A stretch of 64,000 bases of DNA from an uncultured Acidobacteriota bacterium (GCA_963821435.1 CAWGDR010000004.1:255596-319595); one strand, 5' to 3'. Positions 4,856 to 46,754 are shown, counted from the stretch's first letter. A program made the numbers and translations. Notes: generated by a model from the sequence alone, not told the origin.

Positions 4856-4859
4856 GGCG

Positions 4860-6254
<1,395 letters not shown>

Positions 6255-6290
6255 GCGCCGCCGCGAAGGAGGCCCGGCCGGCCCGGGGCG

Positions 6291-7214: not shown

Positions 7215-7261
7215 CGCGCCTCTCGTCTCCAAGCCCATCGTACCCTGCTAGCATTCCGTCG

Positions 7262-9250: not shown

Positions 9251-9257
9251 CCCGCTG

Positions 9258-9935: not shown

Positions 9936-11629
9936 TGCGGCTGGCCCTCGCCCAGATCGACACGACCGTCGGCGATTTCGAGGGAAATGCCGCGAAGATC
10001 CTCCGGAGCCTCGCCCGCGCCGAAGAGGCCGCCGCGCACCTCCTGGCCGTCCCCGAGCTCTCGCTCTGCGGCTACCCCCCGCGGGACCTGATCGAGCGGC
10101 CGGCGTTCCAGCAGGAAGGCGCGCGGGCGCTCGCCGCGCTGACGCGGCGCGTCGGGGAGACGGCCCTCCTCGTCGGCACGTTTCTTCCGAATCGGAAGCG
10201 GACCGGCAAGCCTTTCCACAACGCGGCCGTCCTCCTCCACCGCGGGAAGGCGAAGGCCGTCGCCCGGAAGCTTCTCCTCCCCACCTACGACGTCTTCGAC
10301 GAGGGGCGGCACTTCGAGGCCGGAGCCTCGTGCACGCTCGTCCGCCTCGCGGGCGAAACGCTCGGCCTCTCGATCTGCGAGGACCTCTGGAACGACAAGG
10401 ACTTCTGGCGCACGCGGCGGCTCTATCGCGAGGACCCCGGCGACGAGCTGGTCCGACGGGGCGCGACGCTGATCCTGAACGTCTCGGCCTCCCCCTTCAA
10501 CGAGGGAAAGCCGGCGCTCCGGAGGCGGATGCTGGCGCGCCTCGCCCGCGACGGCCGCGTCCCCGTCGCCTACGTCAACCTCGTCGGCGGGAACGACGAG
10601 CTGGTCTTCGACGGCGGGTCGATCGTCCTCGACGGCTCGGGGCGCGTTGCGGCCCGCGCCGCCCTCTTCGAGGAGGACTTCGTCGTCGTCGAGCTCGGGC
10701 CGGGGAGGGGACGCGCCCGCCGGATCCGCGCGGTTCCGGGGCGCCGGCCCCGCGCCTTCTCCGACGACGCCGATGGAAACCCGCTCGAGTCGCTCCGGCG
10801 GGCGCTCGTCCTCGGCATCCGCGATTACGCGGCCAAGTGCGGATTCCCGACCGCGGTCCTCGGCCTCTCGGGCGGCATCGACTCGGCGCTCGTCGCGGCG
10901 CTCGCTGCCGAGGCCCTCGGGGCGGAGAACGTGACCGGGATCGCCCTCCCGTCGCCCTACTCCTCGGCCGGTTCGATCGCGGACGCGCGGGTCCTGGCGA
11001 AGAACCTCCAGATCCGCTTCGAGGTCCTGCCGATCGGCCCGCTCTTCGCCGCCGCGAAGGAAACGCTCGGCCCGCTCTTCTCGGGGCGCTCCGAGGACGT
11101 GGCCGAGGAGAACGTGCAGTCGCGCCTCCGCGGCCTCCTCTTGATGGCGGTCTCGAACAAGTTCGGACCGCTCGTCCTGACGACCGGGAACAAGAGCGAG
11201 CTCGCGATCGGCTACTGCACGCTCTACGGCGACATGTGCGGGGGCCTCGCCCCGATCTCGGACCTTCCGAAATTGCGTGTTTACGCGCTCGCCCGGCACC
11301 TCAACGCCCGGGCGGCCCGGCCGCTGATCCCCGAGGCGAGCCTGACGAAGCCGCCATCGGCCGAGCTCCGGCCGGGCCAGACCGACCAGGACACGCTCCC
11401 GCCCTACCCGCTGCTCGACGCGATTCTCGAGTCGCTGGTCGAGCGGGGCCTCTCGGCGCGCGCGACGGCCGCCCGGGTGAAGGCGCCGCTCTCCCTCGTC
11501 ACCGGCATCGCACGGCAGCTCGACCGCGCCGAATACAAGCGGGCACAGGCCGCGCCGGGCCTGAAGGTCTCCGCGAAGGCGTTCGGCACCGGCCGGCGGA
11601 TCCCGATCGCGCAGAGGTCACCCGTCTGA
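9935..11629 (+). CDS. nadE: glutamine-dependent NAD+ synthetase (CN-hydrolase + NAD synthetase domains)
   Basis: The gene is intact at 564 aa. The nitrilase-like N-terminus contains 'LSICEDLW' and the PP-loop is 'GLSGGIDSALVAAL'. The ATG overlaps the upstream stop (TGATG). Confidence 0.9.
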   Translation: MRLALAQIDTTVGDFEGNAAKILRSLARAEEAAAHLLAVPELSLCGYPPRDLIERPAFQQEGARALAALTRRVGETALLVGTFLPNRKRTGKPFHNAAVLLHRGKAKAVARKLLLPTYDVFDEGRHFEAGASCTLVRLAGETLGLSICEDLWNDKDFWRTRRLYREDPGDELVRRGATLILNVSASPFNEGKPALRRRMLARLARDGRVPVAYVNLVGGNDELVFDGGSIVLDGSGRVAARAALFEEDFVVVELGPGRGRARRIRAVPGRRPRAFSDDADGNPLESLRRALVLGIRDYAAKCGFPTAVLGLSGGIDSALVAALAAEALGAENVTGIALPSPYSSAGSIADARVLAKNLQIRFEVLPIGPLFAAAKETLGPLFSGRSEDVAEENVQSRLRGLLLMAVSNKFGPLVLTTGNKSELAIGYCTLYGDMCGGLAPISDLPKLRVYALARHLNARAARPLIPEASLTKPPSAELRPGQTDQDTLPPYPLLDAILESLVERGLSARATAARVKAPLSLVTGIARQLDRAEYKRAQAAPGLKVSAKAFGTGRRIPIAQRSPV

Positions 11630-31257: not shown

Positions 31258-32721
31258 CGAGGGCTTCTCGAGCGCTGCCTTCAGGAGCCGGTTCACGACG
31301 GCGGGGCTCGCCTTGCCGCCGGTCGCCTTCATCACCTGCCCGACGAACCACCCGAACGTCGCGGCCTTTCCGGCGCGGTAGGTCTCGACCTGCTGCGGGT
31401 TCGCGGCGAGGATCTTCCCGATCGCCTCGAGGATCGGCCCCTCGTCGACGATCTGGACGAGGCCGCGCTCCTTCACGACGGCGTCGGCCTCCTTCCCCGT
31501 CGCGATCATCTCCGGGAGGACCTCCTTCGCGATCTTCCCGGAGATCGTGCCGCCGTCGATGAGGGCGACGAGCCGCGCGAGGGCCGCGGGGGCGACCGGC
31601 ACGCGCCCGGCCTGCTTCTCGGCGTCGGTCATCCGGCCGAGGAGGTCCGAGAGGAGCCAGTTCGCGATCCCCTTCGGGTTCGCCGGGTGGGCCGCGACGG
31701 CCGCCTCGTACCAGTCGGCGAGCGGGCGCGAGAGGCAGACGAGGTCGGCGTCCGGCGGGCGGGAGCCCGAGCGACGATTCGAGCCGCTTCGCCCGCGCCT
31801 CCGGCAGCTCCGGGAGCGTCGCCGCGACCTCCCGGCGCCACGCGGCGTCGACGACGAGCGTCCCGAGGTCGGGCTCCGGGAAGTAGCGGTAGTCCATCGC
31901 CTCTTCCTTCCCGCGCATCGGCTTCGTCGCGCCCGCGCCCGGCGTCCCAGAGGCGCGTCTCCTGGACGACCGCCCCGCCGGCCGCAAGAACGGCCGCCTG
32001 CCGCCCGATCTCGTGCTCGAGCGCCTTCTTCACGTGGGCGATCGAGTTCAGGTTCTTGATCTCCACCTTCGTTCCGAGCGGCTCCGCGCCCGCCGGGCGG
32101 ACGGAGACGTTCGCGTCGCAGCGGAGAGAGCCCTCCTCCATGTTCCCGTCCGAGGCGTCGACCCACCGGACGAGCCGGCGGAGCTTCACGAGGTAGTCGT
32201 ACGCCTCGTCGGCCGAGCGGAGGTCGGGCTCCGAGACGATCTCGATGAGCGGCGTCCCGGCCCGGTTCAGGTCGACGAGCGAGGCGCCGGTCGGCACGTC
32301 GTCCCACGGAAACTCGTGCATCGACTTCCCGGCGTCCTCCTCGAGGTGGATCCGGTGGAGGCGGACGCGGCGCGCGGCGCTCCCCGCGAGGACGTCCACG
32401 AACCCGCCCGTCGCGAGCGGCCGGTCGTACTGCGAGATCTGGTAGCCCTTCGGCAGGTCCGGGTAGAAGTAGTTCTTCCGCGCGAAGACCGAGCGCTCCT
32501 GGATCGTCGCCGCCGGTCGCGAGGGCGACCCGCATGGCGAGCGTCACCATCTCGCGGTTCATGACCGGGAGGACCCCCGGGTAGCCGAGGCAGACCGGGC
32601 AGACCGCCGTGTTCGGCGCCGCGCCGAAAACGACCGGGCAGGGGCAGAACGCCTTGCTCTTCGTCCGGAGCTGGCAGTGGACCTCGAGCCCGATGACGGG
32701 CTCGAACGCGGCGGGCGGCAT
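31255..32721 (-). CDS. gatB: aspartyl/glutamyl-tRNA(Asn/Gln) amidotransferase subunit B; indels
   Basis: The N-terminal part is '[50 protein letters not shown]'. The middle part is '[13 protein letters not shown]...[14 protein letters not shown]' and the C-terminal part is the GatB/YqeY tail '...[33 protein letters not shown]'. The three parts lie in different frames. Confidence 0.8.
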
Positions 32722-32739: not shown

Positions 32740-34140
32740 TCAACCCGGGAGGACTTTCCCCGGATTCAGGATCCCGCGCGGGTCGAGCGCGGCCTTGACG
32801 GCCCGCATCGCGTCGAGGAACGCCGCGTCGCGGCGCATCGGGAGGAGATCCTTCAGGATGACGCCGACGCCGTGCTCCCCGGTGATCGTCCCGCCGAGGC
32901 GCGACGGCCTCCGCGTAGATCCCGTGCACCGCCCCCTCGAAGACGCGCCGCTGGCTCCGTCGTCCCTTCGCGGAGGAGCCGCACGTGGACGTTCCCGTCG
33001 GCCGCGTGGCCGTAGCAGAAGGGCGAGAGCCCCGCCGCCGCGGCGATCCGCCGGACGCCCGAGGACGAGGGCGACGAGCTCGGAGCGCGGGACCGCGACG
33101 TCGATCTCGACCGAGACGCCGACGTCGTGGATCGCCTCGGCGATGCCGCGCCGGACGTCCCAGAGCGTCCGCCGTTTCGCCTCGTCCGTCGCGAGGGCGA
33201 CGTCGAGCGCGCCGGCCTCGAGGAGGATCTCCCCCGCCCGCGTCACGTCCCGCTCGACCTCGCTCGTCCGAGGCGCCGTCGAAGTCGAGGAGGAGCCGCG
33301 CCTCGGCCCCGGGGAACGGCACGCCGACCCCTTTCTTCCGCGACGAGATCTCGACGCTCGGGCGGTCGACCATCTCGCAGGCCGACGGGAGGAGGCCGCG
33401 CCGGTGGACCTCGAGGACCGCGCCCGCCGCCGCCTCGAGCGAGGCGAAGGGCGCGAGGAGCGTGGCCCACGCGGCCGGCTTCGCGATGAGCCGGAGCCAC
33501 GCCGCCGTGACGACGGCGAGCGTCCCCTCGCTCCCGACGAGGAGCGCCGTCAGGTCGTAGCCCGCCACGTCCTTCCGGGTCTTGCCGCCGGTCACGGTGA
33601 CGCCGCCGTCCGCGAAGACGGCCTCGAGACCCAGCACCCACTTCCCCGTCACGCCGTACTTGGCGGCGTGAGGGCCCCCCGCGTTCTCGGCGACGTTGCC
33701 GCCGATGCAGGCACGAGCCGCGCGAAGAGGGGTCGGGCGGGTAATAGAGCCCGGCCTCCTCCACCGCCTCCTGCAGCGTCTGCGTCACGACCCCCGCCTC
33801 CGCGACGGCGACGAAGTTCGCCGCGTCGATCTCCCGGATCGCGTTCAGGCGCTCGAGCGACAGGGCGACGCCGCCGTGGACGGCGAGGGCGCCGCCCGAC
33901 ATTCCGGTCCGGCCGCCCTGCGGCGTCACCGGGATACGCCGCTCGTGGCAGAACGCGAGGAGGCGCGAAACCTCCGCCGTCGTCCCCGGCTTCACGACCG
34001 CCGCGGGAACGTGGACGAGGTCGCGCGTCCAGTCCTTCGCGTAGGCCGAGAGGTCCTCCCCGGCGGCGAGGACGTGCCGCTCGCCGACGACGAGCGGCGA
34101 GCGCGGAGAGCTCCTCGGGGGCGAGCTCGCGCCGGGCCAT
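32740..34140 (-). CDS. FAD-linked oxidase (glycolate oxidase subunit GlcD / D-lactate dehydrogenase family); multiple indels
   Basis: The FAD-binding part is 'VKPGTTAEVSRLLAFCHERRIPVTPQGGRTGMSGGA', and 'VTGKWVLGLEAVFADGGV...DVAGYDLTALLVGSEGTLAVV' follows. The C-terminus 'ITGEHGVGVILKDLLP...LDPRGILNPGKVLP' is the FAD-oxidase_C signature. Confidence 0.7.
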
Positions 34141-34250: not shown

Positions 34251-35620
34251 ATGAGCAGTTTCGTGGAGAAGATCACGGAGGACGCCCGGCGCGAACGCCG
34301 CCTCGTTCCGCGGCGAGGGAATCGACGCGCTGGTCGTGCAGGCGGTCTTCGAGGCCGACCGCGCGAAGCGCGACGAGGCGCGGCACGCGATCCGGGCCGC
34401 CGCGGCGGTCTACGGCATCCTGCCGGCCTCGATCCACGACCTCTACATGGCGATCGGGCGCGGCGAGTCGGGCGGTTTCACGACCCCGGCCATCAACGTC
34501 CGGATGCTCGCCTACGACACGGCGCGCGCGATCTTCCGCGCGGCGAAGAAGCACGACGTCGGCGCGTTCATCCTCGAGATCGCCCGGAGCGAGATGGGCT
34601 ACACGGACCAGCAGCCGGGCGAGTACGCCGCCGTCGTCCTGGCCGCCGCGATCCGGGAAGGACACGAGGGCCCGGTCTTCATCCAGGGCGACCACTTCCA
34701 GATCAACGCCAAGAAGTACGCGCACGAACCCGGAGGGGGAGCGGAAGGCCATCGAGGCCCTGATCGGCGACGCGATCCCGGCGGGCTTCTTCAACATCGA
34801 CATCGACACGTCGACGCTCGTCGACCTCTCCCAGTCCACCGTCGTCGAGGAGCAGCGGCGCAACTTCGAGAACGCCGCGCACTTCACCCGTTTCATCCGG
34901 GCGCGCGAGCCGAAGGGGCTGACGATCTCGGTCGGGGGCGAGATCGGCGAGGTCGGAAAGGACGTCTCCACGCCGGAGGAGTTCCGCGCCTTCATGAACG
35001 GCTACAAGGCCGCGCTGCCGGCCGGGATGACCGGCGTCTCGAAGATCTCGATCAACACGGGCACCTCGCACGGCGGCGTCGTCCTGCCGGACGGCACGGT
35101 CGCGAAGGTCTCCATCGCCTTCGACTCGATGCAGGCGATCTCGAAGGTCGCCCGGGCCGAGTACGGCCTCGGCGGCGTCGTCCAGCACGGCGCCTCGACG
35201 CTGCCGGCGGAGATGTTCCACGAGTTCCCGAACCACGGGGCGTGCGAGGTCCACCTCGCCACCGAGTTCCAGAACATGGTCTACGAGCACCCGGCGCTCC
35301 CGAAGGAGCTCAAGGACGAGATGTACGCCTGGCTGAAGGCCAACGCCGCCGACGAGCGGAAGCCGAACGACACCGACGAGCAGTTCCTCTACCGCTCGAG
35401 GAAGAAGGCGATCGGCCCGTTCAAGAAGGCGGTCTGGAACCTGCCGGAGGCGGCGCGCTCCGAGATCGGAGCCGCGCTGCAGGCCAAGTTCGAGTACCTC
35501 TTCGGGAAGCTCCGCGTCCAGGGGACGAAGAACGCCGTCTCGCGCTTCGTGAAGCCGGTCGAGGTCGAGCGGACGGTCGCGGCGGGCTCGTTCGTCCGCG
35601 ACGACGAGGCGGGGGACTAG
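34251..35620 (+). CDS. fba: class II fructose-bisphosphate aldolase (long, actinobacterial/cyanobacterial-type); indels
   Basis: An SD GAAGGAG precedes the start. 'TTPAINVRMLAYDTARAIFRAAKKHDVGAFILEIARSE...VFIQGDHFQ' matches the M. tuberculosis Fba pattern 'FPAINCTSSE...HTDHC'. The C-terminal part is 'ISINTGTSHGG...VQHGASTLP'. Confidence 0.65.
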
Positions 35621-35627
35621 TCCCTGC

Positions 35628-37361
35628 TCAGGAGGGGGGGCGCGGCCGGAAATAGACCGCCGCGTCCGCCCGGAGCCCCCGCGGCCGCGGCCCCGGCGGC
35701 CGCTCGAGCCTCTCGACACCCGCCATCTGCCGGCCGAAGACCCGCATGAAGTCGTCCAGGTAGCCCTGCCCGAAATACGGGCGCCGGTACTCCAGATAGG
35801 ACCGGTTGACGATGAAGGCGGCCCCGGGGCGCGTCCGGTCCAGCGCCTCGATCATCTCCCGCTCGTCCTCGGGTCCCTGGTCGCCCGGGTTGAAGTGCTC
35901 GAACGCGAAGGGCGTCCTTCGCTCGGCGAGGAACAGGACGACGCCGGGCTCGGGGAATCCCGCCACGTAATCTCCCTCCTTCGTGTCGCGCACGAGGCGT
36001 TTCACGAGCCCGTCGACGAGCCGCGCCTCGGCGGCGGGGAGGAGCAGGCTCCCCCGGGGAGCCCGCACCCACTCGCGAGGCGTGTCGTGGAAGTCCCGGA
36101 CAACCGCGCCGCCCAGCCCGAGCGCCAGCCCGAGGACGAGGGCCCCGAGCGGCGTCGTCCCGCCCGTCCAGCGGGCGAGAGTCGAGAGGGAGAAGGTGAG
36201 GGCGAGCGGGCCCGAGAAGGCGCTGTACGGGCAGTACCTCAGGAGAAAGAACGGCTGGCGCGAAAGGAACGGCACCATCGCCGCGCCCGCCGCCACCCAG
36301 GGAGCGTCGCCGGAGGCCGGATCGCGCCAGCTCTTCCGGACGAGGGCCCGCGCGATCTCGACCGCGAACGCGACGCTCGCCAGCGGCACGAGCGCCTGCA
36401 CGGCGAGACTCGCCGGCAGGAGAGACGCCGCGAGCCCCAGGGCGAAGAGGAGCGGCGCCGCGAGCCGGGTCCTGAGCGCGCGGGCGAGGAGCACCGCCAG
36501 GGCGAAGAGCGCCGCCGAGGGGAGGTACCGCGAGAGGATCTCCGCGGCGGGGAATCCCCCCTCGGCGAGGTAGCCCCAGCGGACGCTGCGGTAGAGGCCC
36601 TTCAGCTCCTCCGACACCTTCAGGGCCATCAGGAACCCGCGCCTCTCGAGGAGGTCGCGGCCGTACCGTGCGAGCGGGACGAGCCAGAAGAGGCTTCCCG
36701 CGGCGGCGGCCAAAAGGAGCGAGAGGAGCGCCTCGCGGCGAGGCCGTCTCCAGAGGAGCGCGATGCCGACGCCGGCGAGCGCCATCGGGACGATCTCGAG
36801 CTTGGTCCCGCAGGCGACCGCCGCGGCCGCCGCGGCGAAGAGGGAGCGGCGCGGTCCGGTCGACCCGAGCGCCGCCTCGAGGGCGACGAGCGAGAAGACG
36901 GTCCCCTCGAGAGCCGCGACGGCGTACGGGAACGGCCAGGCCCCGCCTCCCGGCTCGAAGACGCAGACGCTCAGGACGAGGCAGGTGACCGCCGCCGCGA
37001 AGCCCCGCGACGGGACGAGCCGGCACGTGAGGCGGCGAAGCGCTTCGACACCCGCGAGGGCTAGAGCGGCCCGGAGGGCGAAGAGCGCCTCGAGGCGCTG
37101 GCCGAGGATCCGGAAGGCCAGCGCGTCGAGCGCCGGCGGCACCGGCCCGAACCAGTAGGCGATGTCGCGGTAGAGCGCCTCCCCGAGGAAGAAGCGGCTC
37201 GCGACGCCCACCTCGCGCCCGCAGTCCTGGAACGGCAGGACCCAGCACTTGTACGTCGCGCCGTAGAGGACGGCAAAGTAGAGCGCCGGCCCGACCGCCG
37301 GCAGCCCGCGCGAGACGACCGCGACGATGCGGCGGCCCGCGGCCGCCACCCGTTCCCTCAC
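35628..37361 (-). CDS. large polytopic membrane protein, glycosyltransferase family 39 / ArnT-PMT-like (tentative)
   Basis: The gene is intact at 577 aa. About 11 predicted TM helices are rich in aromatic and Gly residues, with periplasmic loops. A C-terminal soluble domain reads '...DYVAGFPEPGVVLFLAERRTPFAFEHFNPGD'. The fold class is inferred from topology only. Confidence 0.45.
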   Translation of the reverse strand: MRERVAAAGRRIVAVVSRGLPAVGPALYFAVLYGATYKCWVLPFQDCGREVGVASRFFLGEALYRDIAYWFGPVPPALDALAFRILGQRLEALFALRAALALAGVEALRRLTCRLVPSRGFAAAVTCLVLSVCVFEPGGGAWPFPYAVAALEGTVFSLVALEAALGSTGPRRSLFAAAAAAVACGTKLEIVPMALAGVGIALLWRRPRREALLSLLLAAAAGSLFWLVPLARYGRDLLERRGFLMALKVSEELKGLYRSVRWGYLAEGGFPAAEILSRYLPSAALFALAVLLARALRTRLAAPLLFALGLAASLLPASLAVQALVPLASVAFAVEIARALVRKSWRDPASGDAPWVAAGAAMVPFLSRQPFFLLRYCPYSAFSGPLALTFSLSTLARWTGGTTPLGALVLGLALGLGGAVVRDFHDTPREWVRAPRGSLLLPAAEARLVDGLVKRLVRDTKEGDYVAGFPEPGVVLFLAERRTPFAFEHFNPGDQGPEDEREMIEALDRTRPGAAFIVNRSYLEYRRPYFGQGYLDDFMRVFGRQMAGVERLERPPGPRPRGLRADAAVYFRPRPPS

Positions 37362-37371
37362 GATGCCCGGA

Positions 37372-38388
37372 TTATCGGCGGTAGCGCTCCCGGATGTTCG
37401 GGATCAGGTACTCGCTGAAGGCCCGGGAGAGGTCGTAGCGGGTCGTGAAGCCCCAGTCGCGCCGCGCCGCGGAGTCGTCCACGTCGGCGGGCCAAGAGTC
37501 GACGATCCCCTGCCGCTTCAGGTCGGGCTCGAAGCTGATGGCCGCTCCGGGAAAGGCGTTCACGACGAGGTCGCGGATCTCGGCCGCCGAGGGGTTGAAC
37601 GATCCGACGTTGTAGATCCGCCGGGTGAGCCTCGCGGCCGGCGCCGCCGCGAGCTTCAGGAGAGCGTCGACGCCGTCGGGCATCGCCATGAACGGGATCC
37701 GGGAGTCGGGCCGGACGAAGCAGTCGTACGGCTTCCCCTGTGCGGCGGCGTGGATCATCTCGGGGGCGTAGTCCGAGGTCCCGCCCGACGGGACGGTCAC
37801 CGCGGAGATGAGCCCCGGGAAGCGGACGCAGCGGAAGTCGAGGCGCGGGACCGGCTCTGCGGAGAGCTGCTTGTAGTGCCCCGAGAAGTAGCGGCCGAGG
37901 TGCTCGCAGTAGAGCTTGTTGCAGCCGTACATCGTCGTCGGCGCGTTGAAGGCGTCCTCCCCGACCTTTCCCGCGCGTCCCTTCGCCACGAGGTCCGGCA
38001 GGCCGTAGGCCGCGATGGACGACGGGTAGAGGAACGTGACCGGCCGGCCGTGCGAGCAGCGCTCCGAGTAGGCGAACTCGAGGAGCAGGAGCGTTCCCTC
38101 GACGTTCACCTGGTGCGCCGTCACGGGGGTGAACTCGCTCCGCGTCGAGAGGAGCGCCGCGAGGTGGAAGATCAGGTCGATCTCGTACTCGGACAGGATC
38201 CGCTCGAGGAGGTTCCGGTCCAGGATCGAACCGGTGAACTGCCGCTCCACGCGCCGCCCGAGGTCCTCCTCGAGCGTCTTCAGGTCGAGCGTGACGATCT
38301 TCCGGGAGCCGTCGTCCGAGAGGTGGGTGATCAGTCCGTGCCCGATCTCGCCGCTGGCTCCGGTGATGAGGACGACGGGTCGCCGCAT
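37372..38388 (-). CDS. NAD-dependent epimerase/dehydratase (SDR, L-threonine 3-dehydrogenase / UDP-sugar epimerase-like)
   Basis: The gene is intact. It has the Rossmann motif 'VLITGASGEIGHGLI', 'IFHLAALLS' and the YxxxK motif 'YGCNKLY'. Confidence 0.8.
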   Translation of the reverse strand: MRRPVVLITGASGEIGHGLITHLSDDGSRKIVTLDLKTLEEDLGRRVERQFTGSILDRNLLERILSEYEIDLIFHLAALLSTRSEFTPVTAHQVNVEGTLLLLEFAYSERCSHGRPVTFLYPSSIAAYGLPDLVAKGRAGKVGEDAFNAPTTMYGCNKLYCEHLGRYFSGHYKQLSAEPVPRLDFRCVRFPGLISAVTVPSGGTSDYAPEMIHAAAQGKPYDCFVRPDSRIPFMAMPDGVDALLKLAAAPAARLTRRIYNVGSFNPSAAEIRDLVVNAFPGAAISFEPDLKRQGIVDSWPADVDDSAARRDWGFTTRYDLSRAFSEYLIPNIRERYRR

Positions 38389-38475
38389 GTTCGCGTCTCC
38401 TTCCGGGCGTCGGGATCTTAGACGCTGGGCGGCGCTCCGGAGCCGGTCTCCTGCATCGGTATCATCCCGGCCGCC

Positions 38476-39429
38476 GTGCCCGGACAGCCCTCGATCGTCG
38501 CGCAGCTCACCCACCGCACGTTCGGGCTCTGGTTCTCGTTCTTCCGCTGGATGGCGCGGACGCTGCCGCCGGAGTGGGTCGCGCGGCTCGCGGCCGCGAC
38601 GGCGGAGCGGGCGATCTGGGAGCGGGAGAGCGTCCACGACGCCATCGCCGACAACTTCGCGGCCGTCCTCGGCCTCTCGCCCAAGGACCGCCGCGTCGAG
38701 GAGGCGGGGCGCGAGATGGTCTCCCGCCACTCGCGGCTCTGGATCGACCTCCTTCGCTACTCGGGGCGCGGGGACGTCGACGCGCGCGCGCTCCTCGCGC
38801 GCCGCTCGGGGGACGAGCGGCTCCTCGACGCGCGGGACGCCGGCCGGGGGGCGATCCTCCTGACCGCCCACGTCGGCAACTTCGAGCTGGGCGGGCTCTT
38901 CCTCCGCGAGCTCGGCCTCTCCTGCGCGGCGGCGTACGTCCCGGACCCGTCGCCCGTCATCGAGAAACACCGCGAGGACGCCCGGAGGGCGCTCGGCGTC
39001 ACCGGCATCCCGGTCACCTCCTCCCCTTTCGCCTTCGTGCCGCTCCTCCGCGCCCTCCGCGAGGGGCGCTTCGTGGCGATGCAGGGAGACCGGGACGTTT
39101 CGGGCACCGGGAGGGCGTTCCCGTTCTTCGGGCGGTCGGCATCGTTTCCGGTCGGCCCGTTCCGCCTCGCGGCGCTCTCGGGCGCTCCGCTCCTTCCGGT
39201 CTTCGTCCTCCAGGAGGCCGACGGCCGCTACCGGACGCACGTGGACGATCCGATCCGGCTCACGCTCGCCGCCGGATCGCGGTCGGAGCCGGAGGAGGGG
39301 GAGCTCGAGGCCGCGCTCGCTCGCTGGGTGGAGCTCCTCGCCCGGGTCATCCGCGAGAACCCGACGCAGTGGTACCTCTTCACGCGATTCTGGGAGGAGC
39401 AGGACCCTTCGGAGGCCACCTCCCTATAA
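38476..39429 (+). CDS. lysophospholipid/lipid A biosynthesis acyltransferase (LpxL/HtrB-like LPLAT)
   Basis: The gene is intact at 317 aa. The HX4D-like acyltransferase region is 'ILLTAHVGNFELGG', and 'FVAMQGDRD' is also present. It is divergent from the epimerase. Confidence 0.75.
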   Translation: MPGQPSIVAQLTHRTFGLWFSFFRWMARTLPPEWVARLAAATAERAIWERESVHDAIADNFAAVLGLSPKDRRVEEAGREMVSRHSRLWIDLLRYSGRGDVDARALLARRSGDERLLDARDAGRGAILLTAHVGNFELGGLFLRELGLSCAAAYVPDPSPVIEKHREDARRALGVTGIPVTSSPFAFVPLLRALREGRFVAMQGDRDVSGTGRAFPFFGRSASFPVGPFRLAALSGAPLLPVFVLQEADGRYRTHVDDPIRLTLAAGSRSEPEEGELEAALARWVELLARVIRENPTQWYLFTRFWEEQDPSEATSL

Positions 39430-39502
39430 TCCGCGCGCGCCGCCGGACTCTCCCGCCGACCGTTCTCGGCACGGGTGTTGCTGACGCCGCGGAGCCCGCG
39501 CC

Positions 39503-41011
39503 ATGAAGATCCTCATCGCCACCGACCGAAACCAGCCGAACGACCGCTACCGCGGGGCGCTCCTCTGCGCGGGGGCGCTGCCCGAGGAGGTGGCGATCGT
39601 CACGCCGGGGCAGAAGCTCCCCGACGACTTCGACGGGCTGCTCCTCGCCGGGGGGCCGGACGTCGCGCCGGAGCGCTACGGAGAGACCGCGGCGACGAGC
39701 ACCCTGGAGGTCGACGCCGCGCGCGACGCGCTCGACTTCGCGCTCTTTTCCGCCGCGGCCGAGCGGAAGATCCCCCTCTTCGGCATCTGCCGGGGCATCC
39801 AGGTGGTCAACGTCGCCCTCGGCGGGACGCTCTGGCAGGAGCTCGAGGCGCAGCGGCCGCGCGGCGTCGTCCACGATTGCGACCGGGATGCCGCGCTCAT
39901 TCCCGAACACCTCGTCCGGTCCCGCGCCCCCTCCGCCGGCGCGTCGGCGTTCGCCGCCGCGCTCGCCTCCCCGAACGGGGCCTCCGTCAACACGCGCCAC
40001 CACCAGGGGATCAAGGACCTCGCGCCGGGACTCGCGCCGCTGGCCGCCTCGCCCGACGACCTCGTCGAGGCGGTGGAGAAGCCGGGCGAGCCGTTCCTCG
40101 CGGCGGTGCAGTGGCACCCCGAGGACCTCGTCGCCCGGCCCGACCAGAAGCGGCTCTTCCGCGCCTTCCTCGAGGCCTGCCGCGCGCGGGTCCGGCGGAC
40201 GGGGCGGCGTCCCGCGGCGCTGATCGAGGTCGCGCTCACCGGCCGCGTCCCGGTCGTCCGCTTCAACCGGCCGTCCGCGCGCAATGCGTTCACGGCCCCA
40301 ATGGCCGCGATGCTCGCCGACACGGTGGACGCCCTCGGCCGGGACACGACCGTCCCCGCCATCGTCCTCACGGGGAACGGGGGCGCCTTCTCCTCCGGCG
40401 GCGATCTCGACGTGATGCGCGCCCTCGCCGCCGCCTCCGACGACGAGGGGTTCCGGGAGCTTCTCGAGGAGGGGGGCCGCGCGGTCCTCGCGATGGTCGA
40501 CGCGCCGCGCCCCGTCCTCGCCGCGGTGGACGGCGCGGCGGCCGGCGGCGGGATGAGCCTCGCGCTGGCGGCCGACGTCCGCGTCGCGTCGTCGGCGGCC
40601 GGCCACGCGGCGCTCTTCGTCCCCTCGTACGCGGCGGTCGGCCTCATCCCCGCGTGGGGAGCGACGCTGCACCTGCCGGAGCGCCTGGGCGCCGGCATCG
40701 CGGCCGACGTCGTCTTCGCGGCGGAGCGCATCGGCGCCGTCCGCGCGCGCCAGATCGGCCTCGCCGACCTTCTCGTCGAGGATGGCCCGAGCCTTCCGTC
40801 CGCCCTCGCCCGCGCCGAGACCTACGCGGAGCGCTCGCTCGCCGCCGTCGCCGCCTCGAAGCGGCTTCTCGCGGCCGAGCGGCGCCCGCGCCTCGTGGCC
40901 GCGCTCGCGCGCGAGGTGGAAAGCCAGATCGAACTCTTCCGGAGCGGAGAGCTCCTCCGGCGTCTGCCGGTAACCGAGCGGAGCCGCCCGGACGAACAGG
41001 AGACCTCATGA
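39503..41011 (+). CDS. fusion protein: N-terminal peptidase C26 / gamma-glutamyl-GABA hydrolase-like class I glutamine amidotransferase domain + C-terminal enoyl-CoA hydratase/isomerase (crotonase) domain
   Basis: The gene is intact at 502 aa. The C26 nucleophile elbow is 'FGICRGIQVVNVALGG' and the His motif is 'NTRHHQGI'. The crotonase oxyanion region is 'IVLTGNGGAFSSGGDLD...DGAAAGGGMSLALAADVRVA'. Confidence 0.7.
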   Translation: MKILIATDRNQPNDRYRGALLCAGALPEEVAIVTPGQKLPDDFDGLLLAGGPDVAPERYGETAATSTLEVDAARDALDFALFSAAAERKIPLFGICRGIQVVNVALGGTLWQELEAQRPRGVVHDCDRDAALIPEHLVRSRAPSAGASAFAAALASPNGASVNTRHHQGIKDLAPGLAPLAASPDDLVEAVEKPGEPFLAAVQWHPEDLVARPDQKRLFRAFLEACRARVRRTGRRPAALIEVALTGRVPVVRFNRPSARNAFTAPMAAMLADTVDALGRDTTVPAIVLTGNGGAFSSGGDLDVMRALAAASDDEGFRELLEEGGRAVLAMVDAPRPVLAAVDGAAAGGGMSLALAADVRVASSAAGHAALFVPSYAAVGLIPAWGATLHLPERLGAGIAADVVFAAERIGAVRARQIGLADLLVEDGPSLPSALARAETYAERSLAAVAASKRLLAAERRPRLVAALAREVESQIELFRSGELLRRLPVTERSRPDEQETS

Positions 41012-41964
41012 CCACGTTTCGTCCCGTCCTCCCCGCCGCGCTCGCGGCCCTCTTCGTCGCGGGAGCCGCGGCGTCCCAGACGCCGACGCCGCCGAAGGCC
41101 CCGGAGCTCCCTCCGTTCGAGGTGGCCCAGACCGATCCGCACTCCTGGATGGGCCGGTTCGGCATCACGAACTGTTCCTGGTTCGATCTCGGCGACGGCG
41201 TCGTCCTCATCGACACGGGCGCCTCGGAGGCCGACGGCCGGAACCTCCTCGCCGAGGTGAAGCGGACGGTGCCCGGAAAGCCCGTGAGGTGGATCGTCAT
41301 GACCCACCTTCACGGCGACTCCAATGGCGGGTTCCAGGCCCTCATGCCGACCGACGCGATGATCATCGTGAACGAGCGCGCGCTGCCGGGCTTCACCGCG
41401 CTCCTCCGCGGTGGCGGCAAGGTGCCGACGATGGTCGGGGTGAAGGACAAGCTCGTGCTCCAGGGAAAGACCCAGGCGCTCGAGATCCGCGCGACGACCG
41501 CTCCCGCCCACACGGCGGACGATCTCTGGGTCTTCCAGCCGACCGCGAACGTCGTCTACGTGGGCGACCTCGTGACACCCGCCCGATGCCCGATGATGTC
41601 CGACCCCGGGACCGATCCGAAGGGCTGGCTCCTCGCGCTCGACCAGATCGAAGCCGTCCACGCCGCGGCGCTCGTCCCGACGCGCGGGCCCTCGACCGTC
41701 AAGGTCGCCGAGCAGATCCTCGGGACGCGGTCGTACATCAAGCGGATGCTCGAGATCCTGACGGCGATGAAGAAGATCAACGCCGCGGAGGCGCGCGTCT
41801 CGGGCGAGCTCGCGGCCCAGAAGATCGGCGAGTACTGCCCGAAGGAGCTGGACGTCACGAACGCGCTCTATCTCTACCGCCGGATGAACGAGGACGGGAC
41901 GTTCAATCAGAAGCCCGGCGGCCCGGCCGGCGGCCCGGCCAAGCCCCCCGCCAAGAAGAACTGA
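41008..41964 (+). CDS. secreted MBL-fold metallo-hydrolase
   Basis: The ATG overlaps the upstream stop (ATGA). The signal peptide is 'MTTFRPVLPAALAALFVAGAAAS'. The metal-binding motif is 'MTHLHGDSNGG'. Confidence 0.75.
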   Translation: MTTFRPVLPAALAALFVAGAAASQTPTPPKAPELPPFEVAQTDPHSWMGRFGITNCSWFDLGDGVVLIDTGASEADGRNLLAEVKRTVPGKPVRWIVMTHLHGDSNGGFQALMPTDAMIIVNERALPGFTALLRGGGKVPTMVGVKDKLVLQGKTQALEIRATTAPAHTADDLWVFQPTANVVYVGDLVTPARCPMMSDPGTDPKGWLLALDQIEAVHAAALVPTRGPSTVKVAEQILGTRSYIKRMLEILTAMKKINAAEARVSGELAAQKIGEYCPKELDVTNALYLYRRMNEDGTFNQKPGGPAGGPAKPPAKKN

Positions 41965-41999
41965 CCCGACTCCGGTTCTTTCCCGCGCGGAAGGGGTTT

Positions 42000-42026
42000 G
42001 GGGAAACCCGGGCGCGGGTTTCCCCA
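42000..42026. repeat. REP-like perfect hairpin GGGGAAACCCG-N5-CGGGTTTCCCC (copy 2), preceded by CCCGCGCGGAAGGGG
   Basis: The stem is identical to the copy at 26785-26811. The element, including its flank, is in inverted orientation relative to copy 1. It lies 36 nt after the MBL stop. Confidence 0.5.
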
Positions 42027-42030
42027 AGAC

Positions 42031-42064
42031 AGGAAAAGGGGTCCCGGCGTTTCGCCGGGACCCC
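42031..42064 (-). terminator. canonical Rho-independent terminator on the minus strand (11-bp GC stem GGGGTCCCGGC, GAAA loop, followed by UUUUCCU)
   Basis: The minus strand reads GGGGTCCCGGCGAAACGCCGGGACCCC + TTTTCCTGTCTT. It is a rare U-tract terminator in a 70% GC context. It lies 240 nt downstream of the queF stop. Confidence 0.55.
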
Positions 42065-42300
42065 GCTGTCGGGCGGCTCATGATTGCCGCCCTGTCCCAG
42101 GACCGCATCCGCGGCCCTTAGTTGTGGCCGGATCGTCATCGAGGCGCTCTCCCGGTCGGGAGACCCGGGCTCGGATCCGGCCGTGTCGCGCGTCCAACCC
42201 CGAAGTGGGCGACCCTCGGTGACGGTTTCTCGAACTCGTGCTCGGGTCGTCGTTCGATGGCGGGCGCGCACCTCCAAGATGGTTTCGGAAGAGGGCCGTG

Positions 42301-42726
42301 TCAAGGGGAACGACGTGCGCGACGGCGAAGCCGCGGCCAGGCCGCCTCCACCGTCGTCTGGAGCCCTCCCCGGGGCGTGAAGATGCCGCGGACCGTCATC
42401 CGGCGCGGGCGAACCGCCGCCACCAGGTCGTCGAGCACCCGGTTGACGGCGTTCTCGTTGAAGATGCCGAGCGAGCGGTACGCGAGAAGGTATTCCTTCA
42501 GGGATTTCAGCTCCACGCAGCGCTCCCGGGGCACGTAGGTCACGGTGAGCGTCGCGAAGTCCGGAAGGCCGGTCTTCGGGCAGATCGAGGTGAATTCCGG
42601 GACGGAGATGGCGATCTCGTATTCGCGCCCGTACTGGTTGGGAAAGGACTGAAGCGGCGGGAGCGGCTCGCGCGTCCCGGACGCCGCGTGCTCGTCGGTG
42701 TAGCGGGGCTTCGGCGGCCTTTTCAT
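42301..42726 (-). CDS. queF: NADPH-dependent 7-cyano-7-deazaguanine reductase (YkvM-type preQ1 synthase)
   Basis: The gene is intact. 'YEIAISVPEFTSICPKTGLPDFATLTVTYVP...LKSLKEYLLAYRSLGIFNENAVNRVLDDL...GIFTPRGG' is diagnostic, with the Cys in 'SICPKTG'. Confidence 0.85.
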   Translation of the reverse strand: MKRPPKPRYTDEHAASGTREPLPPLQSFPNQYGREYEIAISVPEFTSICPKTGLPDFATLTVTYVPRERCVELKSLKEYLLAYRSLGIFNENAVNRVLDDLVAAVRPRRMTVRGIFTPRGGLQTTVEAAWPRLRRRARRSP

Positions 42727-42733
42727 GGCCCGG

Positions 42734-42752
42734 AGGATAAACTCCCGCCCCT
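42734..42752. promoter_or_regulatory. 26-nt divergent intergenic region with overlapping -10-like hexamers (plus TAAACT, minus TATCCT) 9 and 7 nt from the lepB and queF start codons; CCCGCCCC tract
   Basis: The plus strand reads GGA-TAAACT-CCCGCCCCT-ATG (lepB). The minus strand reads TATCCT-CCGGGCC-ATG (queF). No SD is present on either side, which suggests leaderless transcripts. Confidence 0.4.
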
Positions 42753-43457
42753 ATGCCGTTCTCCAAGGAAAAGCGTGCGGCCCTCCTCCGCGACCTCCGG
42801 CACCTCGTCCTCATGGCCGCGGTCATCCTGACCGGCCGTTCGGTCCTGGCCGACTGGTACGTCGTTCCGACCGGCTCCATGAAGCCGACGATCCTCGAAG
42901 GCGACCGGGTCTTCGTCTGGAAATCCGCCTACCAGATCCGCGTTCCGTTCTCGCGGGTCAAGCTCTTCTCGACCGGGGTGCCCCGGCGAGGCGACGTCGT
43001 GGTGGTCCGGAACCCCGACGGGGGGAGCATCCCGTTCGTGAAGCGCCTCATCGGGCTCCCCGGCGACGTCGTCGAGCTGCGGAACGAGACGCTCTACCTG
43101 AACGGCGCCGCGATGCCGGCCGACTTCCTCCCCGAGCGGAAGGCCGACGACGGCGAGACCCTCCTCCTCGGCACCGAGGACCTGATGGGGCGAAAGCACC
43201 CGATCCGGATCCTGCCGGACCGGCCCGCCTTCCGGACCTTCGGCCCGATCACGGTCCCGGAGGGGGAGATCTTCGTCATGGGGGACAATCGGGACGAGAG
43301 CCGCGACGCCCGCTTCTTCGGGACCCGGCCCGTCTCCGACCTCCTGGGGCGCGCCGTCGGCATCATGTGGAGCTGGAACAACGAATTCGCGAAGGGCCCC
43401 CGATGGAGTCGCTTCGGCCGGAAGTTCATCAGCGAGGCGAACGAGGTCAAACCCTAG
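42753..43457 (+). CDS. lepB: signal peptidase I
   Basis: The gene is intact. The N-terminus is a TM anchor. The catalytic Ser is in 'VVPTGSMKPTI', 'VKRLIGLPGD' is the box with the catalytic Lys, and 'VMGDNRDESRDARFFG' is also present. Confidence 0.85.
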   Translation: MPFSKEKRAALLRDLRHLVLMAAVILTGRSVLADWYVVPTGSMKPTILEGDRVFVWKSAYQIRVPFSRVKLFSTGVPRRGDVVVVRNPDGGSIPFVKRLIGLPGDVVELRNETLYLNGAAMPADFLPERKADDGETLLLGTEDLMGRKHPIRILPDRPAFRTFGPITVPEGEIFVMGDNRDESRDARFFGTRPVSDLLGRAVGIMWSWNNEFAKGPRWSRFGRKFISEANEVKP

Positions 43458-44761: not shown

Positions 44762-45231
44762 AGGGAGTTCGCGACGTTCTCGCCGGTGACTGGCTGTCGA
44801 CCCGGGTCGGGATCGCGCTCGGGCTCTTCTTCGTCGCCGCGGCGCTGCCGAAGCTCGCCGACCCCCCCTCCTTCGCCCACATGATCTACAACTACCGCCT
44901 CGCGCCCGGCTCCCTCGTCAACCTCGCGGCCCTCGTCCTGCCGTGGCTGGAGCTGACCTGCGGCGTCGCGCTGATCCTCGGGATCTGGAGCCGGCCGGCC
45001 GCGGCGATCGTCGGGGGCCTCCTCCTCGTCTTCGTCGCCGCGGTCTCGGCGAACCTCCTCCGGGACCACGCGATCGACTGCGGCTGCTTCGACGTCCGGG
45101 ACGCCGGGAAGTCGGTCGACGAGCGGCTCCAGGACATGCGGATGGTGATCGTCCGCGACGCCGGGATGCTCCTGATGGTCGCCCAGATCCTCTGGGCGGG
45201 GGCGAGGCGCGAGGCCGGCCCCGCGGGCTAG
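44758..45231 (+). CDS. DoxX/MauE-family membrane protein
   Basis: The ATG overlaps the rhodanese stop (ATGA). It has four TM helices, for example 'VGIALGLFFVAAALPKL' and 'LPWLELTCGVALILGIW'. The conserved 'DCGCF' motif is typical of MauE/DoxX-like thiol-disulfide membrane proteins. Pairing with a rhodanese gene is common. Confidence 0.55.
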   Translation: MKGVRDVLAGDWLSTRVGIALGLFFVAAALPKLADPPSFAHMIYNYRLAPGSLVNLAALVLPWLELTCGVALILGIWSRPAAAIVGGLLLVFVAAVSANLLRDHAIDCGCFDVRDAGKSVDERLQDMRMVIVRDAGMLLMVAQILWAGARREAGPAG

Positions 45232-46754
45232 AGCGCGGAGGTCTCCCGCGCCGCCGCGAGGACCTCGTCCACCGTGGCGTCCGCGTCCGCGAGCGTCGAG
45301 CGCGGGTTGATGAAGCAGGGGCGGATCGCGAACCGTCCGCCGACGCGCGTATGCGAAGGAACGGCGCGGCCGCGCGCCCGGACCCGGAGCAGCACCTTCT
45401 CGTTCAGCGCGTCGAGCGCGGCCTCGTCCGCAACGCCCTTCGGCCGGACGCGGAAGCAGCAGATCGAGAGGACCGGCTCGGCCAGGAGCTCGAGCGACGG
45501 GTGCGCCCTGACGCGCTCGGCGACGCGGCGGGCCGAGTCGTGGTGGCGGACCACGCGCGCGCGCATCCCGCCCGCCCCGATCTCCTTCAGGAGGGCCCAG
45601 ACGGCGAGCCCGCGGGAGGGCGCGGAGTGGTCGACCGAGAAGTCCGGGTTCCCCTCCCCCCGCTCGTCGAACGGCGAGTCGACGTCCCCGGTCCCGGTCG
45701 GCGCCATCTCGACGTAAGCCGCCGGCTCGAGCGTCAGCGCGCGCGCGAGGAGGCCGCCGTCTCGCACGAATCCGGCTCCGCAACCGATCGCGATCGCCAT
45801 CCACTTGTGCGGGTCGACGGCGAAGGAGTCGATCTTCGCGAGGTCCCCGAAGAGCGGCGCGACGCGCGGGTCGAGGACGCCGAACCCACCGTACGCGCCG
45901 TCCACGTGCAGCCAGACGCCGCGAGCGTGGGCGATCCCGCGCAAGGCGTCGACCGGATCGACCGCGCCCGTGTTCACGTCGCCGGCGGAGGCGACGACCG
46001 CGACCGGCGTCGCGCCGCGGGCGAGGTCCTCGTCCAGCATCCTCTCGAGCGCCGAAAGGTCGGGCCGCCGCGCCGCGTCGACGGGCACGAGGCGCAGCGC
46101 CTTCCGGCCGAGGCCGAGGACGCCACAGGCGCGGTGGATGACGTGGTGCACCTCGGTGGAGGCGTAGACGCGCGGCGACGGGAGCCCCGCGAGGCCGTCG
46201 AGCGACGGGTCGACGCCGCGGCGCTCGCCGGCGTGCTGGCGGGCGGCGGCGAGGCCCAGCAGGTTCGCGAGGGCGCCGCCTCCCACGAAGGCGCCTTCGA
46301 AATGGTCCGGGAGGCCGACGAGGCGGGCGAGCCAGCGGAGGCCCAGCACCTCGAGGAAGTTGCCCGGCGTCGCCCACCACCGCTGGGCGGCCGTGAGCGA
46401 CGCCGCGAGCTGCGCGACGGCCGGGACCGTCGTCGGCATCGTCGTCACCCAGCCCGTGAAGCCGGGCGCGCCGATCCGGAGACCGTTCGGGATCACGACC
46501 TCCGCGAGCGTCTTCAAAACGGCCTCGCGCCCGAGCCCGGCTTCCGGGAGCGGCTCGTCGAGCGCGGCCCGCCAGGCGCTCCGCTTCGCCGCGCCGTCCG
46601 GCCCCTCGAAGCGGAGAAAGCGGTCGAGGGCCGGCTGGAGCGCCGCGAGCGACTCGGCGAGGGCGTCCGTCGACGCGGCCTCGACGGGACCCGCGATCTT
46701 CTCCGGCGGCGCCGCGCCCGGCCGGGCTTCCGCGGCGGGATGTGGGTCCTTCAA
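45228..46754 (-). CDS. PLP-dependent decarboxylase (group II: L-2,4-diaminobutyrate / aromatic amino acid decarboxylase family)
   Basis: The gene is intact at 508 aa. The PLP-lysine region is 'SFAVDPHKWMAIAIGCGAGFV'. 'HVDGAYGG' is also present. Confidence 0.8.
   Translation of the reverse strand: MKDPHPAAEARPGAAPPEKIAGPVEAASTDALAESLAALQPALDRFLRFEGPDGAAKRSAWRAALDEPLPEAGLGREAVLKTLAEVVIPNGLRIGAPGFTGWVTTMPTTVPAVAQLAASLTAAQRWWATPGNFLEVLGLRWLARLVGLPDHFEGAFVGGGALANLLGLAAARQHAGERRGVDPSLDGLAGLPSPRVYASTEVHHVIHRACGVLGLGRKALRLVPVDAARRPDLSALERMLDEDLARGATPVAVVASAGDVNTGAVDPVDALRGIAHARGVWLHVDGAYGGFGVLDPRVAPLFGDLAKIDSFAVDPHKWMAIAIGCGAGFVRDGGLLARALTLEPAAYVEMAPTGTGDVDSPFDERGEGNPDFSVDHSAPSRGLAVWALLKEIGAGGMRARVVRHHDSARRVAERVRAHPSLELLAEPVLSICCFRVRPKGVADEAALDALNEKVLLRVRARGRAVPSHTRVGGRFAIRPCFINPRSTLADADATVDEVLAAARETSAL

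Follow-up and report, generated by a model that had tools for sequence, protein, structure and literature searches.

A 64,000-nucleotide stretch of DNA from an uncultured Acidobacteriota bacterium (GCA_963821435.1, CAWGDR010000004.1:255596-319595), referred to here as the window, contains a gene in which a PuuD/SpuA-like hydrolase domain of the peptidase C26 family is fused to a C-terminal domain with the fold of crotonase (enoyl-CoA hydratase, ECH). The fusion is genuine, conserved, and confined to one clade of uncultured Acidobacteriota belonging to the class Thermoanaerobaculia. Each half comes from a well-known superfamily, and it is the combination that appears to be new. Judging from the conserved residues, the C26 half is predicted to be a fully equipped hydrolase domain, and the ECH half appears catalytically degenerate as an enoyl-CoA hydratase. 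The protein may combine an active PuuD/SpuA-like hydrolase with a non-hydratase crotonase domain serving as a scaffold or acyl-CoA-binding module, a reading to which we give an even chance.

The window has a GC content of ~72%, and the fusion gene is a single intact open reading frame (ORF) of 502 amino acids (aa) that starts with ATG and displays a codon-position GC of 0.79/0.53/0.95, as in real genes of 72% GC DNA. The N-terminal half matches Peptidase_C26 (PF07722, aa 37-207, 162.5 bits against a cutoff of 20.5) as well as the class-I glutamine amidotransferase (GATase) family (PF00117, 4e-14, 53 bits), while the C-terminal half matches ECH_1 (PF00378, aa 249-480, 124.8 bits against a cutoff of 27) and ECH_2 (1.3e-23). 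Together, these data confirm the single C26-ECH ORF described in the original prediction, and the motifs GICRG (aa 94-98), HHQ, GNGGAFSSGGDLD and AAGGGMSLALAADVRVA were located in its product. AlphaFold2 (AF2) modeled the whole protein as one compact unit with a pLDDT of 91.8 and a pTM of 0.90. The linker between the domains is short and can be aligned across homologues which, together with the pTM value of the model, suggests a fixed inter-domain geometry.

Of 5.8 billion protein clusters searched for homologues, more than 100 (~500 aa) are 47-90% identical to the fusion protein and share its four Pfam matches; they stem from NCBI, JGI, ENA, and Logan assemblies. Where named, these clusters derive from Thermoanaerobaculia/Acidobacteriota metagenome-assembled genomes (MAGs), and the nearest locus, L006, lies in an uncultured Acidobacteriota MAG with 89% aa identity. 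In the loci of the fusion clade, the fusion gene is always followed by a gene encoding a hydrolase of the metallo-beta-lactamase (MBL) fold. An exhaustive profile hidden Markov model (HMM) search of 1.84 billion representative proteins identified two full-length fusions (P0023 and P0105) and fragments, and all C26-ECH proteins among its 150 best matches came from one clade. Independent fusions elsewhere were considered and rejected, as the other two-stretch matches checked (~470-550 aa) were C26-C26 or ECH-ECH tandems. No PDB chain covers both halves according to Foldseek (TMq <= 0.47, single-domain matches only), and a full-text literature search found no paper describing a C26-ECH fusion. 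The architecture, previously flagged as unfamiliar, is thus undescribed in the PDB and the searchable full-text literature and occurs in one clade only.

It could be argued that a sequencing or assembly error, such as a lost stop codon or a frameshift near position 40200, has made one gene out of adjacent, ordinary C26 and ECH genes, and the original prediction had asked for read support there. Caution on this point is reasonable given that nearby genes are frameshifted, with indel-type breaks in three housekeeping genes located within 8 kb upstream. Compared with intact homologues, GatB (31267-32721, minus strand) is split into four pieces over three frames, a GlcD-like FAD oxidase (32749-34091, minus strand) into at least three pieces, and a class II fructose-bisphosphate aldolase (34300-35617, plus strand) over two frames. 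As GatB is normally essential, pseudogenes seem less plausible here than indel-type assembly errors. Many genes of locus L011 are broken across frames in the same way. The fusion gene differs, as its uninterrupted ~500-aa architecture recurs in more than 100 clusters from assemblies of different technologies and at 10 independent genome loci, and therefore it is not an assembly artefact. The short, alignable linker and the compact AF2 model point the same way, leaving an artefactual origin with a negligible probability and disposing of the missing-stop concern.

The C26 half carries the complete catalytic apparatus attributed to it earlier. Cys96 sits in the GICRG motif, and His205 and Glu207 sit in a WHPE motif; this triad and the HHQ motif are invariant in an alignment of 29 diverse fused proteins. 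The same residues occur without exception in 86 C26 sequences of related loci, wherever the alignment columns are occupied. In addition, the C26 half aligns over its full length with PuuD (6vtv), Lin1909 (3fij), and SpuA (7d4r, 7d50, and 7d53) at ~31-32% identity, and the triad matches that of PuuD and Lin1909.

The ECH half had been described as a complete crotonase, which is true of its fold and oxyanion-hole motifs but not of its catalytic residues. Foldseek comparisons with the PDB gave a TMt of up to 0.92 to crotonases (3lke) with a root-mean-square deviation (rmsd) of 1.8 Å. Both oxyanion-hole motifs, FxxGxD and DGxxxGxG, are present with F296, G299, D301, G344, G348, and G350 conserved, and the NRPxxxNA motif is also retained. 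The fold-defining and oxyanion-hole positions shared with active ECHs comprise P257, N261, F296, G299, G344, G348, G350, and D358. However, PDB alignments place S352 at the site of Glu144 (rat numbering), with GGGM-S-LA instead of the GGT-E-LA of crotonases, and S375/Y376 at the site of Glu164, with VP-S-Y instead of IP-E-V. Across the fused family, position 352 is occupied by S, N, G, A, or T and the Glu164 equivalent by S-Y/F/gap, while the loop 372-385 is full of indels and the middle glycine of the GGG motif (Gly349) is mostly Ala. In contrast, all standalone ECHs adjoining C26 in related loci (51/51) carry GGGxE and PE and thus keep both glutamates. The fused domain displays clade-specific invariants instead, namely D313 within a four-residue insertion, R437, R480, and R414, which takes the place of a conserved Glu; clade-specific insertions lie at 312-315 and 368-370. 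Its scores remained below every NCBIfam crotonase equivalog cutoff (oxepin-CoA hydrolase alternative type, EchA19, PaaG, and others), the best being 149.8 against 300.

The original prediction had also proposed that one polypeptide links gamma-glutamyl or amide hydrolysis to crotonase chemistry and had named an alignment of the catalytic glutamates as a comparison that could refute it. As S352 and S375/Y376 replace both glutamates at positions that vary within the family, the proposal does not hold, and the domain should not be annotated as a hydratase. Present database names, such as "gamma-glutamyl-gamma-aminobutyrate hydrolase family protein" and "enoyl-CoA hydratase/PuuD", imply activities that the sequence supports for one half only.

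Although the hydratase residues are gone, the ECH domain is under purifying selection and is not decaying, as its ratio of nonsynonymous to synonymous substitution rates (dN/dS) of 0.16-0.20 is similar to that of the C26 half. This comparison uses two close pairs only, as distant pairs are unreliable due to saturated dS and strong codon bias; the ratios were 0.20 for C26 and 0.16 for ECH between the window and L006, and 0.18 and 0.20, respectively, between L002 and L008. In comparisons between clades, dN in the ECH domain is higher than in C26 by a factor of ~1.5. The domain evolves fastest across clades in the indel-rich loop that was formerly catalytic (aa 362-392), where dN amounts to 0.5-1.0. 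The domain has also been deleted in at least three lineages in which the C26 gene followed by the MBL gene was kept. In the ECH-less form P0108 (23 member sequences, contigs of more than 350 kb), the part after C26 is reduced to the first ECH strand plus the C-terminal tail. The deletion endpoint differs in P0111, and P0118 and L012 carry an unrelated tail of ~60 aa. All ECH-less forms directly precede the MBL gene. In the C26 tree, L003 (P0108 type) falls within the fused clade, and its loss of ECH is therefore secondary, while L004 and L012 are placed at the base of the clade.

The origin of the fusion can be followed in 85 related loci, which HMM and phmmer mapping sorted into four clean classes. 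Type A, comprising the window and 10 loci, carries the fusion gene and the MBL gene on one strand, followed by queF on the opposite strand and by lepB and fur on the same strand as the fusion; an lpxl gene and an AAT gene on the fusion strand and a KS pair on the opposite strand may precede the fusion gene. Type A' (three loci) has the same arrangement without ECH. In type B (~20 loci), a divergent pyridoxal phosphate (PLP)-dependent decarboxylase gene is followed by thiolase, c26, mbl, ech, class-IV aminotransferase, and sometimes OsmC genes, with queF again on the opposite strand. Type C (~20 loci) has the order ech, an optional aldehyde dehydrogenase (ALDH) gene, thiolase, c26, ech, and an optional further ech, without MBL, and its genes overlap by 4 nt. 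Types A and B are positional homologues, as queF flanks both. None of these neighbours accompanies the C26 genes of other phyla.

According to Pfam and NCBIfam, the sister-clade operons encode an acetyl-CoA C-acyltransferase-type thiolase, a betaine/aminobutyraldehyde-type ALDH, two-glutamate crotonases, and a D-amino-acid-transaminase-like protein, with the named NCBIfam matches below their curated cutoffs except for the thiolase subfamily match. The ECH adjoining C26 is closest to cyclohexadienecarbonyl-CoA hydratase, also below cutoff. The C26-adjacent ECHs of types B and C form sister clades with a common short CFP-PxAA loop. The fused ECH domains form one monophyletic group in neighbour-joining (NJ) trees, as would be expected from a single fusion event. 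These trees do not distinguish which standalone paralogue (CFP/Dch-like, canonical, or upstream type) was the donor, and while the fused domain scores higher with the canonical crotonase paralogue in hmmsearch, this may only reflect the slower evolution of that paralogue. The gene orders of the sister clades indicate that the association of C26 and ECH in one operon greatly predates their fusion in a single lineage. Against this background, the fusion is a lineage-specific remodeling of an older, uncharacterised, catabolic-type operon. It supports a functional link between C26 and ECH, after which the fused copy would have lost its hydratase chemistry.

Several features of these operons deserve mention. 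Type B loci (L014-L042), for example L015 at 4777-9985, encode in order a thiolase, C26, an exported MBL with a full HxHxDH set, a two-glutamate ECH, a D-amino-acid-transaminase-like protein and, in some cases, an OsmC-like protein; the flanking genes are queF and a divergent one for a diaminobutyrate-decarboxylase-like PLP enzyme. The window itself encodes a group II PLP decarboxylase at 45228-46754 (minus strand), with L-2,4-diaminobutyrate decarboxylase as its best NCBIfam match (160 bits against a cutoff of 900). A homologue directly precedes the thiolase-C26 operon of type B and could thereby link it to polyamine or diamine metabolism. In L029 (351-7463) and ~20 other type C loci, the order is ECH, ALDH, thiolase, C26, a Dch-like ECH and, optionally, a canonical crotonase, again with 4-nt overlaps, and an optional gene at the start encodes a 678-aa protein with no Pfam or NCBIfam match. 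The pairing of ALDH and C26 recalls the Puu pathway, here together with beta-oxidation-type genes. Downstream of the L029 operon (8299-11292, plus strand) is a gene for a 998-aa protein with a NACHT/STAND NTPase region and a C-terminal FGE-sulfatase (SUMF1-like) domain.

A constant partner of the fusion gene is the MBL gene. The fusion stop codon (TGA, 41009-41011) overlaps the MBL start codon (ATG, 41008-41010), and both this ATGA overlap and the signal peptide of the MBL, as reported in the original prediction, are real and conserved across fusion-clade loci. The C-terminal residues Q-E-T/I-S/A of the fusion protein (window 40997-41008) recur in many homologues; as the AGGAG ribosome-binding site of MBL falls on the codons for these residues, the apparent protein motif probably owes its existence to the translation signal of the next gene. 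Judged by eye, the MBL N-terminus, MTTFRPVLPAALAALFVAGAAAS followed by Q, resembles a Sec signal peptide spanning approximately aa 1-23 (41008-41076), and similar N-termini were seen by the same means in 30 loci of both types A and B. The protein matches Lactamase_B (PF00753) with 65.7 bits against a cutoff of 22.7 and retains the HxHxD motif and the ligands H100-L-H102-G-D104, H168, and D187. Yet the window MBL lacks the full binuclear ligand set, as type A proteins have Ser in place of the His of the DH pair (HLHGD-S instead of HxHxDH) and Arg in place of the last His (PTRG instead of PGHG), whereas type B homologues carry the full set (HxHxDH ... H ... D/C ... H). The protein did not reach the subclass B1 beta-lactamase cutoff (NCBIfam NF033088, 46.5 against 200 bits), its B1/SoxH-like NCBIfam matches are weak (46-85 bits against cutoffs of 200-300), and the closest PDB entries are 6xfr, 8d2z, and VIM (~1e-11 to 1e-7). 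In the fusion clade, both partners of C26, ECH and MBL, have therefore drifted from canonical active sites.

Taken together, the following mechanism can be proposed. The N-terminal domain most likely functions in the manner of PuuD and SpuA, in which case Cys96 would attack a gamma-glutamyl or closely related amide and the amine would leave, after which His205 and Glu207 would assist hydrolysis of the glutamyl-thioester intermediate and glutamate would be released. A gamma-glutamyl amide is the most likely substrate class in view of family membership and the invariant triad. The crotonase-fold protein, once a separate operon partner, would have been captured permanently at the C26 C-terminus and, after or with the fusion, would have lost both general acid/base glutamates and thereby enoyl-CoA hydration. 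Lacking these residues, it is unable to activate water by the canonical route. It now most likely acts as an oligomerisation scaffold, as a non-catalytic CoA- or acyl-CoA-binding module, or as both, with EchA6 as a precedent. Crotonases are typically trimers or hexamers. The exported MBL would act outside the cytoplasm and probably handles a successive form of the same nitrogen-containing substrate as the cytoplasmic C26 domain. The functional link between the two is probable, the tight and conserved translational coupling of their genes being the sole indication.

Some observations weigh against this proposal. The fusion protein did not reach the PuuD equivalog cutoff (NCBIfam NF008471, 101.9 against 266 bits) and, by that measure, is not a PuuD orthologue. 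Many crotonase-superfamily enzymes rely on other catalytic residues, so that D313, R414, R437, and R480 could form a new active site, and the kept oxyanion hole, the strong purifying selection, and the fixed inter-domain geometry would equally fit catalysis. Finally, a cytoplasmic fusion protein and an exported MBL need not share a pathway.

These points lead to the possibility that the ECH domain has been neofunctionalised within a bifunctional enzyme, binding acyl-CoA and using the oxyanion hole together with new residues such as D313, without water-activating glutamates. Candidate reactions would be an attack by ammonia or an amine from C26 on a thioester or on the beta-carbon of an enoyl-CoA, thioester hydrolysis, or decarboxylation. 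The conserved oxyanion-hole and NRPxxxNA-type motifs, the four clade-specific invariants, a purifying selection equal to that on the C26 half, the match of C26 to class-I GATases, the long-standing operon partnership, and the short linker and pTM value speak for this possibility. However, the fastest-evolving, indel-rich part of the domain is precisely the former catalytic loop, and the partner ECH in the sister clades is an ordinary two-glutamate hydratase. The repeated deletion of the domain while C26 and MBL persist also counts against neofunctionalisation, as a GATase without its acceptor domain would be a futile glutaminase, and to our knowledge the C26-family enzymes characterised so far are hydrolases and not ammonia-channelling subunits. 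We therefore regard neofunctionalisation as unlikely. Less likely again is an amidotransferase-like enzyme, in which ammonia or an amine, released by C26 from a gamma-glutamyl donor, takes the role of water and attacks an acyl- or enoyl-CoA held in the oxyanion hole of the ECH domain to form a primary or secondary amide or a beta-amino acyl-CoA; in that case, the absence of the glutamates would be adaptive because it suppresses hydration, and the new site would include D313.

At the other extreme, the ECH domain could be purely structural, an oligomerisation or stability scaffold that binds no ligand and fixes the C26-ECH stoichiometry or assembles C26 trimers or hexamers. Lost catalytic residues and a variable active-site loop, in a fold that is retained under selection and yet dispensable in some lineages, are consistent with such a role. 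The CoA and oxyanion-hole residues are still conserved, though, and a scaffold would not need them, even if those glycines are also structural. We consider a pure scaffold about as improbable as neofunctionalisation, and a non-hydratase domain that may act as scaffold or acyl-CoA binder alongside an active hydrolase remains the preferred reading.

Table 1 Features of the fusion gene and its surroundings in the window.
Feature	Position	Strand	Basis or remark
Fusion gene, C26 (PuuD/SpuA-like) hydrolase and degenerate crotonase-fold (ECH) domain, 502 aa	39503..41011	+	Intact ORF, Pfam, homologue clusters, AF2
C26/class-I GATase-like domain, aa 1-232	39503..40198	+	PF07722, 1.7e-47; PDB relatives; invariant triad
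C26 catalytic residues C96, H205, E207; HHQ at aa 166-168	39788-39790 (C96), 40115-40117 (H205), 40121-40123 (E207)	+	
Crotonase-fold (ECH) domain, aa 240-490	40220..40972	+	PF00378, 4.9e-36; PDB alignments; Foldseek; comparison with 51 ECHs
Lost catalytic Glu sites S352 and S375/Y376	40556-40558 (S352), 40625-40630 (S375/Y376)	+	PDB alignments
Shine-Dalgarno sequence AGGAG for MBL, within the final four codons (Q-E-T-S) of the fusion gene, separated from the ATG by 5 nt	40998..41002	+	Sequence read directly
MBL-fold hydrolase, 318 aa, ATG overlapping the fusion-gene stop (ATGA)	41008..41964	+	PF00753, 7e-18
LpxL/PatA-family acyltransferase (Lip_A_acyltrans), 73 nt upstream of the fusion gene	38476..39429	+	PF03279, 1e-30, 107 bits
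Short-chain dehydrogenase/reductase (SDR) epimerase	37372..38421	-	Pfam
Multi-pass membrane protein, 577 aa, strong coding signal	35628..37361	-	No Pfam or NCBIfam family
GC-rich hairpin of 12 bp in the gap where MBL and queF converge, minus-strand T-tail	42038..42064	.	Terminator scan

The genes upstream of the fusion were previously interpreted as an LpxL-type acyltransferase, an SDR epimerase, and a GT39-like glycosyltransferase. Pfam supports the first two, although the acyltransferase scores above the Pfam cutoff but below any equivalog cutoff, its best NCBIfam match being PIM acyltransferase with 124.7 bits against 209. The glycosyltransferase label finds no support, as the 577-aa membrane protein in that place matches no PMT/GT-C or other Pfam or NCBIfam family at E <= 0.01 and gave only a spurious 12.9-bit match at E <= 10; among the 85 related loci, only L006 encodes a homologue. 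The spacer between lpxl and c26 is not conserved across loci and no more structured than its shuffles (z = 0.46), and the regulatory element considered there was rejected. No sigma-70-like promoters were found in 38300-42900 and no Rfam or tRNA matches in the window. On its 3' side, the unit likely ends at the hairpin between MBL and queF. A divergently oriented pair of KS-like genes lies between the LpxL-like gene and the fusion gene in L002 (5836-7964), L003, L005, L007, L008, and L010, often with an AAT (PF03417)-like gene beside it, and the window and L006 lack this insert.

From these neighbours, it had been suggested that the block forms an envelope-lipid or acyl-amide processing module, in which the fusion protein and the MBL would act together with the acyltransferase, epimerase, and glycosyltransferase on a glycolipid. 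The acyltransferase gene indeed precedes c26 in the same orientation in most type A/A' loci (11 of 13 besides the window), and the KS pair and AAT-like gene found between the two in several loci also speak for the idea. Yet L001 and L007 lack the acyltransferase, as do types B and C throughout, in which c26 follows a thiolase gene. In addition, the epimerase and the 577-aa protein are encoded on the opposite strand, the latter occurs in the window and L006 only and has no glycosyltransferase signature, the spacer behind the acyltransferase gene is neither conserved nor structured, and the ECH domain lacks the hydratase residues. As the neighbours are linked only within the fusion clade, and the C26 genes of the sister clades lie in thiolase/ECH/ALDH/aminotransferase operons, the module idea is not sustained, and we consider it highly improbable.

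If the preferred reading is true, the fusion would provide a Rosetta-stone link, revealing that a PuuD-like hydrolase has long been partnered with thiolase and crotonase genes in Thermoanaerobaculia, often with an exported MBL as well. The thiolase-C26-(MBL)-ECH set would represent a conserved, uncharacterised module in a large uncultured lineage of soil and sediment. Furthermore, the protein would exemplify pseudoenzyme evolution, with a hydratase captured by fusion, stripped of its glutamates, kept by selection, and independently dropped in some lineages.

Among known systems, the C26 half is closest to E. coli gamma-glutamyl-GABA hydrolase PuuD (6vtv), the SpuA/PauD-type gamma-glutamyl-polyamine hydrolase of P. 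aeruginosa (7d4r/7d50/7d53), and Lin1909 (3fij), with which it shares the fold (Foldseek TMt ~0.8), the Cys-His-Glu triad, and the HHQ motif. The Puu pathway also has an ALDH in the same operon, as does the type C clade. However, no solved or characterised C26 enzyme has a C-terminal crotonase-fold domain. Moreover, the fusion gene has no PuuA-like gamma-glutamyl ligase gene near it and sits beside a gene for an exported MBL, its ancestral neighbours including thiolase and ECH genes. Class-I glutamine amidotransferase fusions, which channel ammonia, are built in a similar way, with a GATase1-type Cys-His-Glu domain at the N-terminus followed by a second domain with an enzyme fold. They differ in that the N-terminal domain of the fusion protein belongs to the C26 hydrolase branch, its second domain has been lost repeatedly while the first was kept, and its acceptor-like domain is a degenerate crotonase, which is not known to accept ammonia. 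As for the MBL, subclass B1 metallo-beta-lactamases and SoxH-like periplasmic zinc hydrolases share the Lactamase_B fold, HxHxD motif, and export, but the similarity is weak (E ~1e-11), and the window protein has Arg in place of the last His and Asp in place of Cys221.

The ECH half shares NRPxxxNA, FxxGxD, and DGxxxGxG with the enoyl-CoA hydratases/crotonases (rat ECH 1dub/2dub; bacterial 3lke, 3p5m, and 5z7r), which keep the catalytic glutamates, whereas the fused domain has S352, S375/Y376, an indel-rich loop, and added insertions. Its nearest functional parallel may be EchA6 (Rv0905) of Mycobacterium tuberculosis, which a passage in PMC5501465, citing Cox et al. 2016, presents as a non-catalytic crotonase fold reported to bind acyl-CoA. 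Like EchA6, the fused domain lacks the canonical catalytic residues and is nevertheless maintained. While EchA6 is a standalone protein working with FAS-II, the domain described here is fused to a C26 hydrolase.

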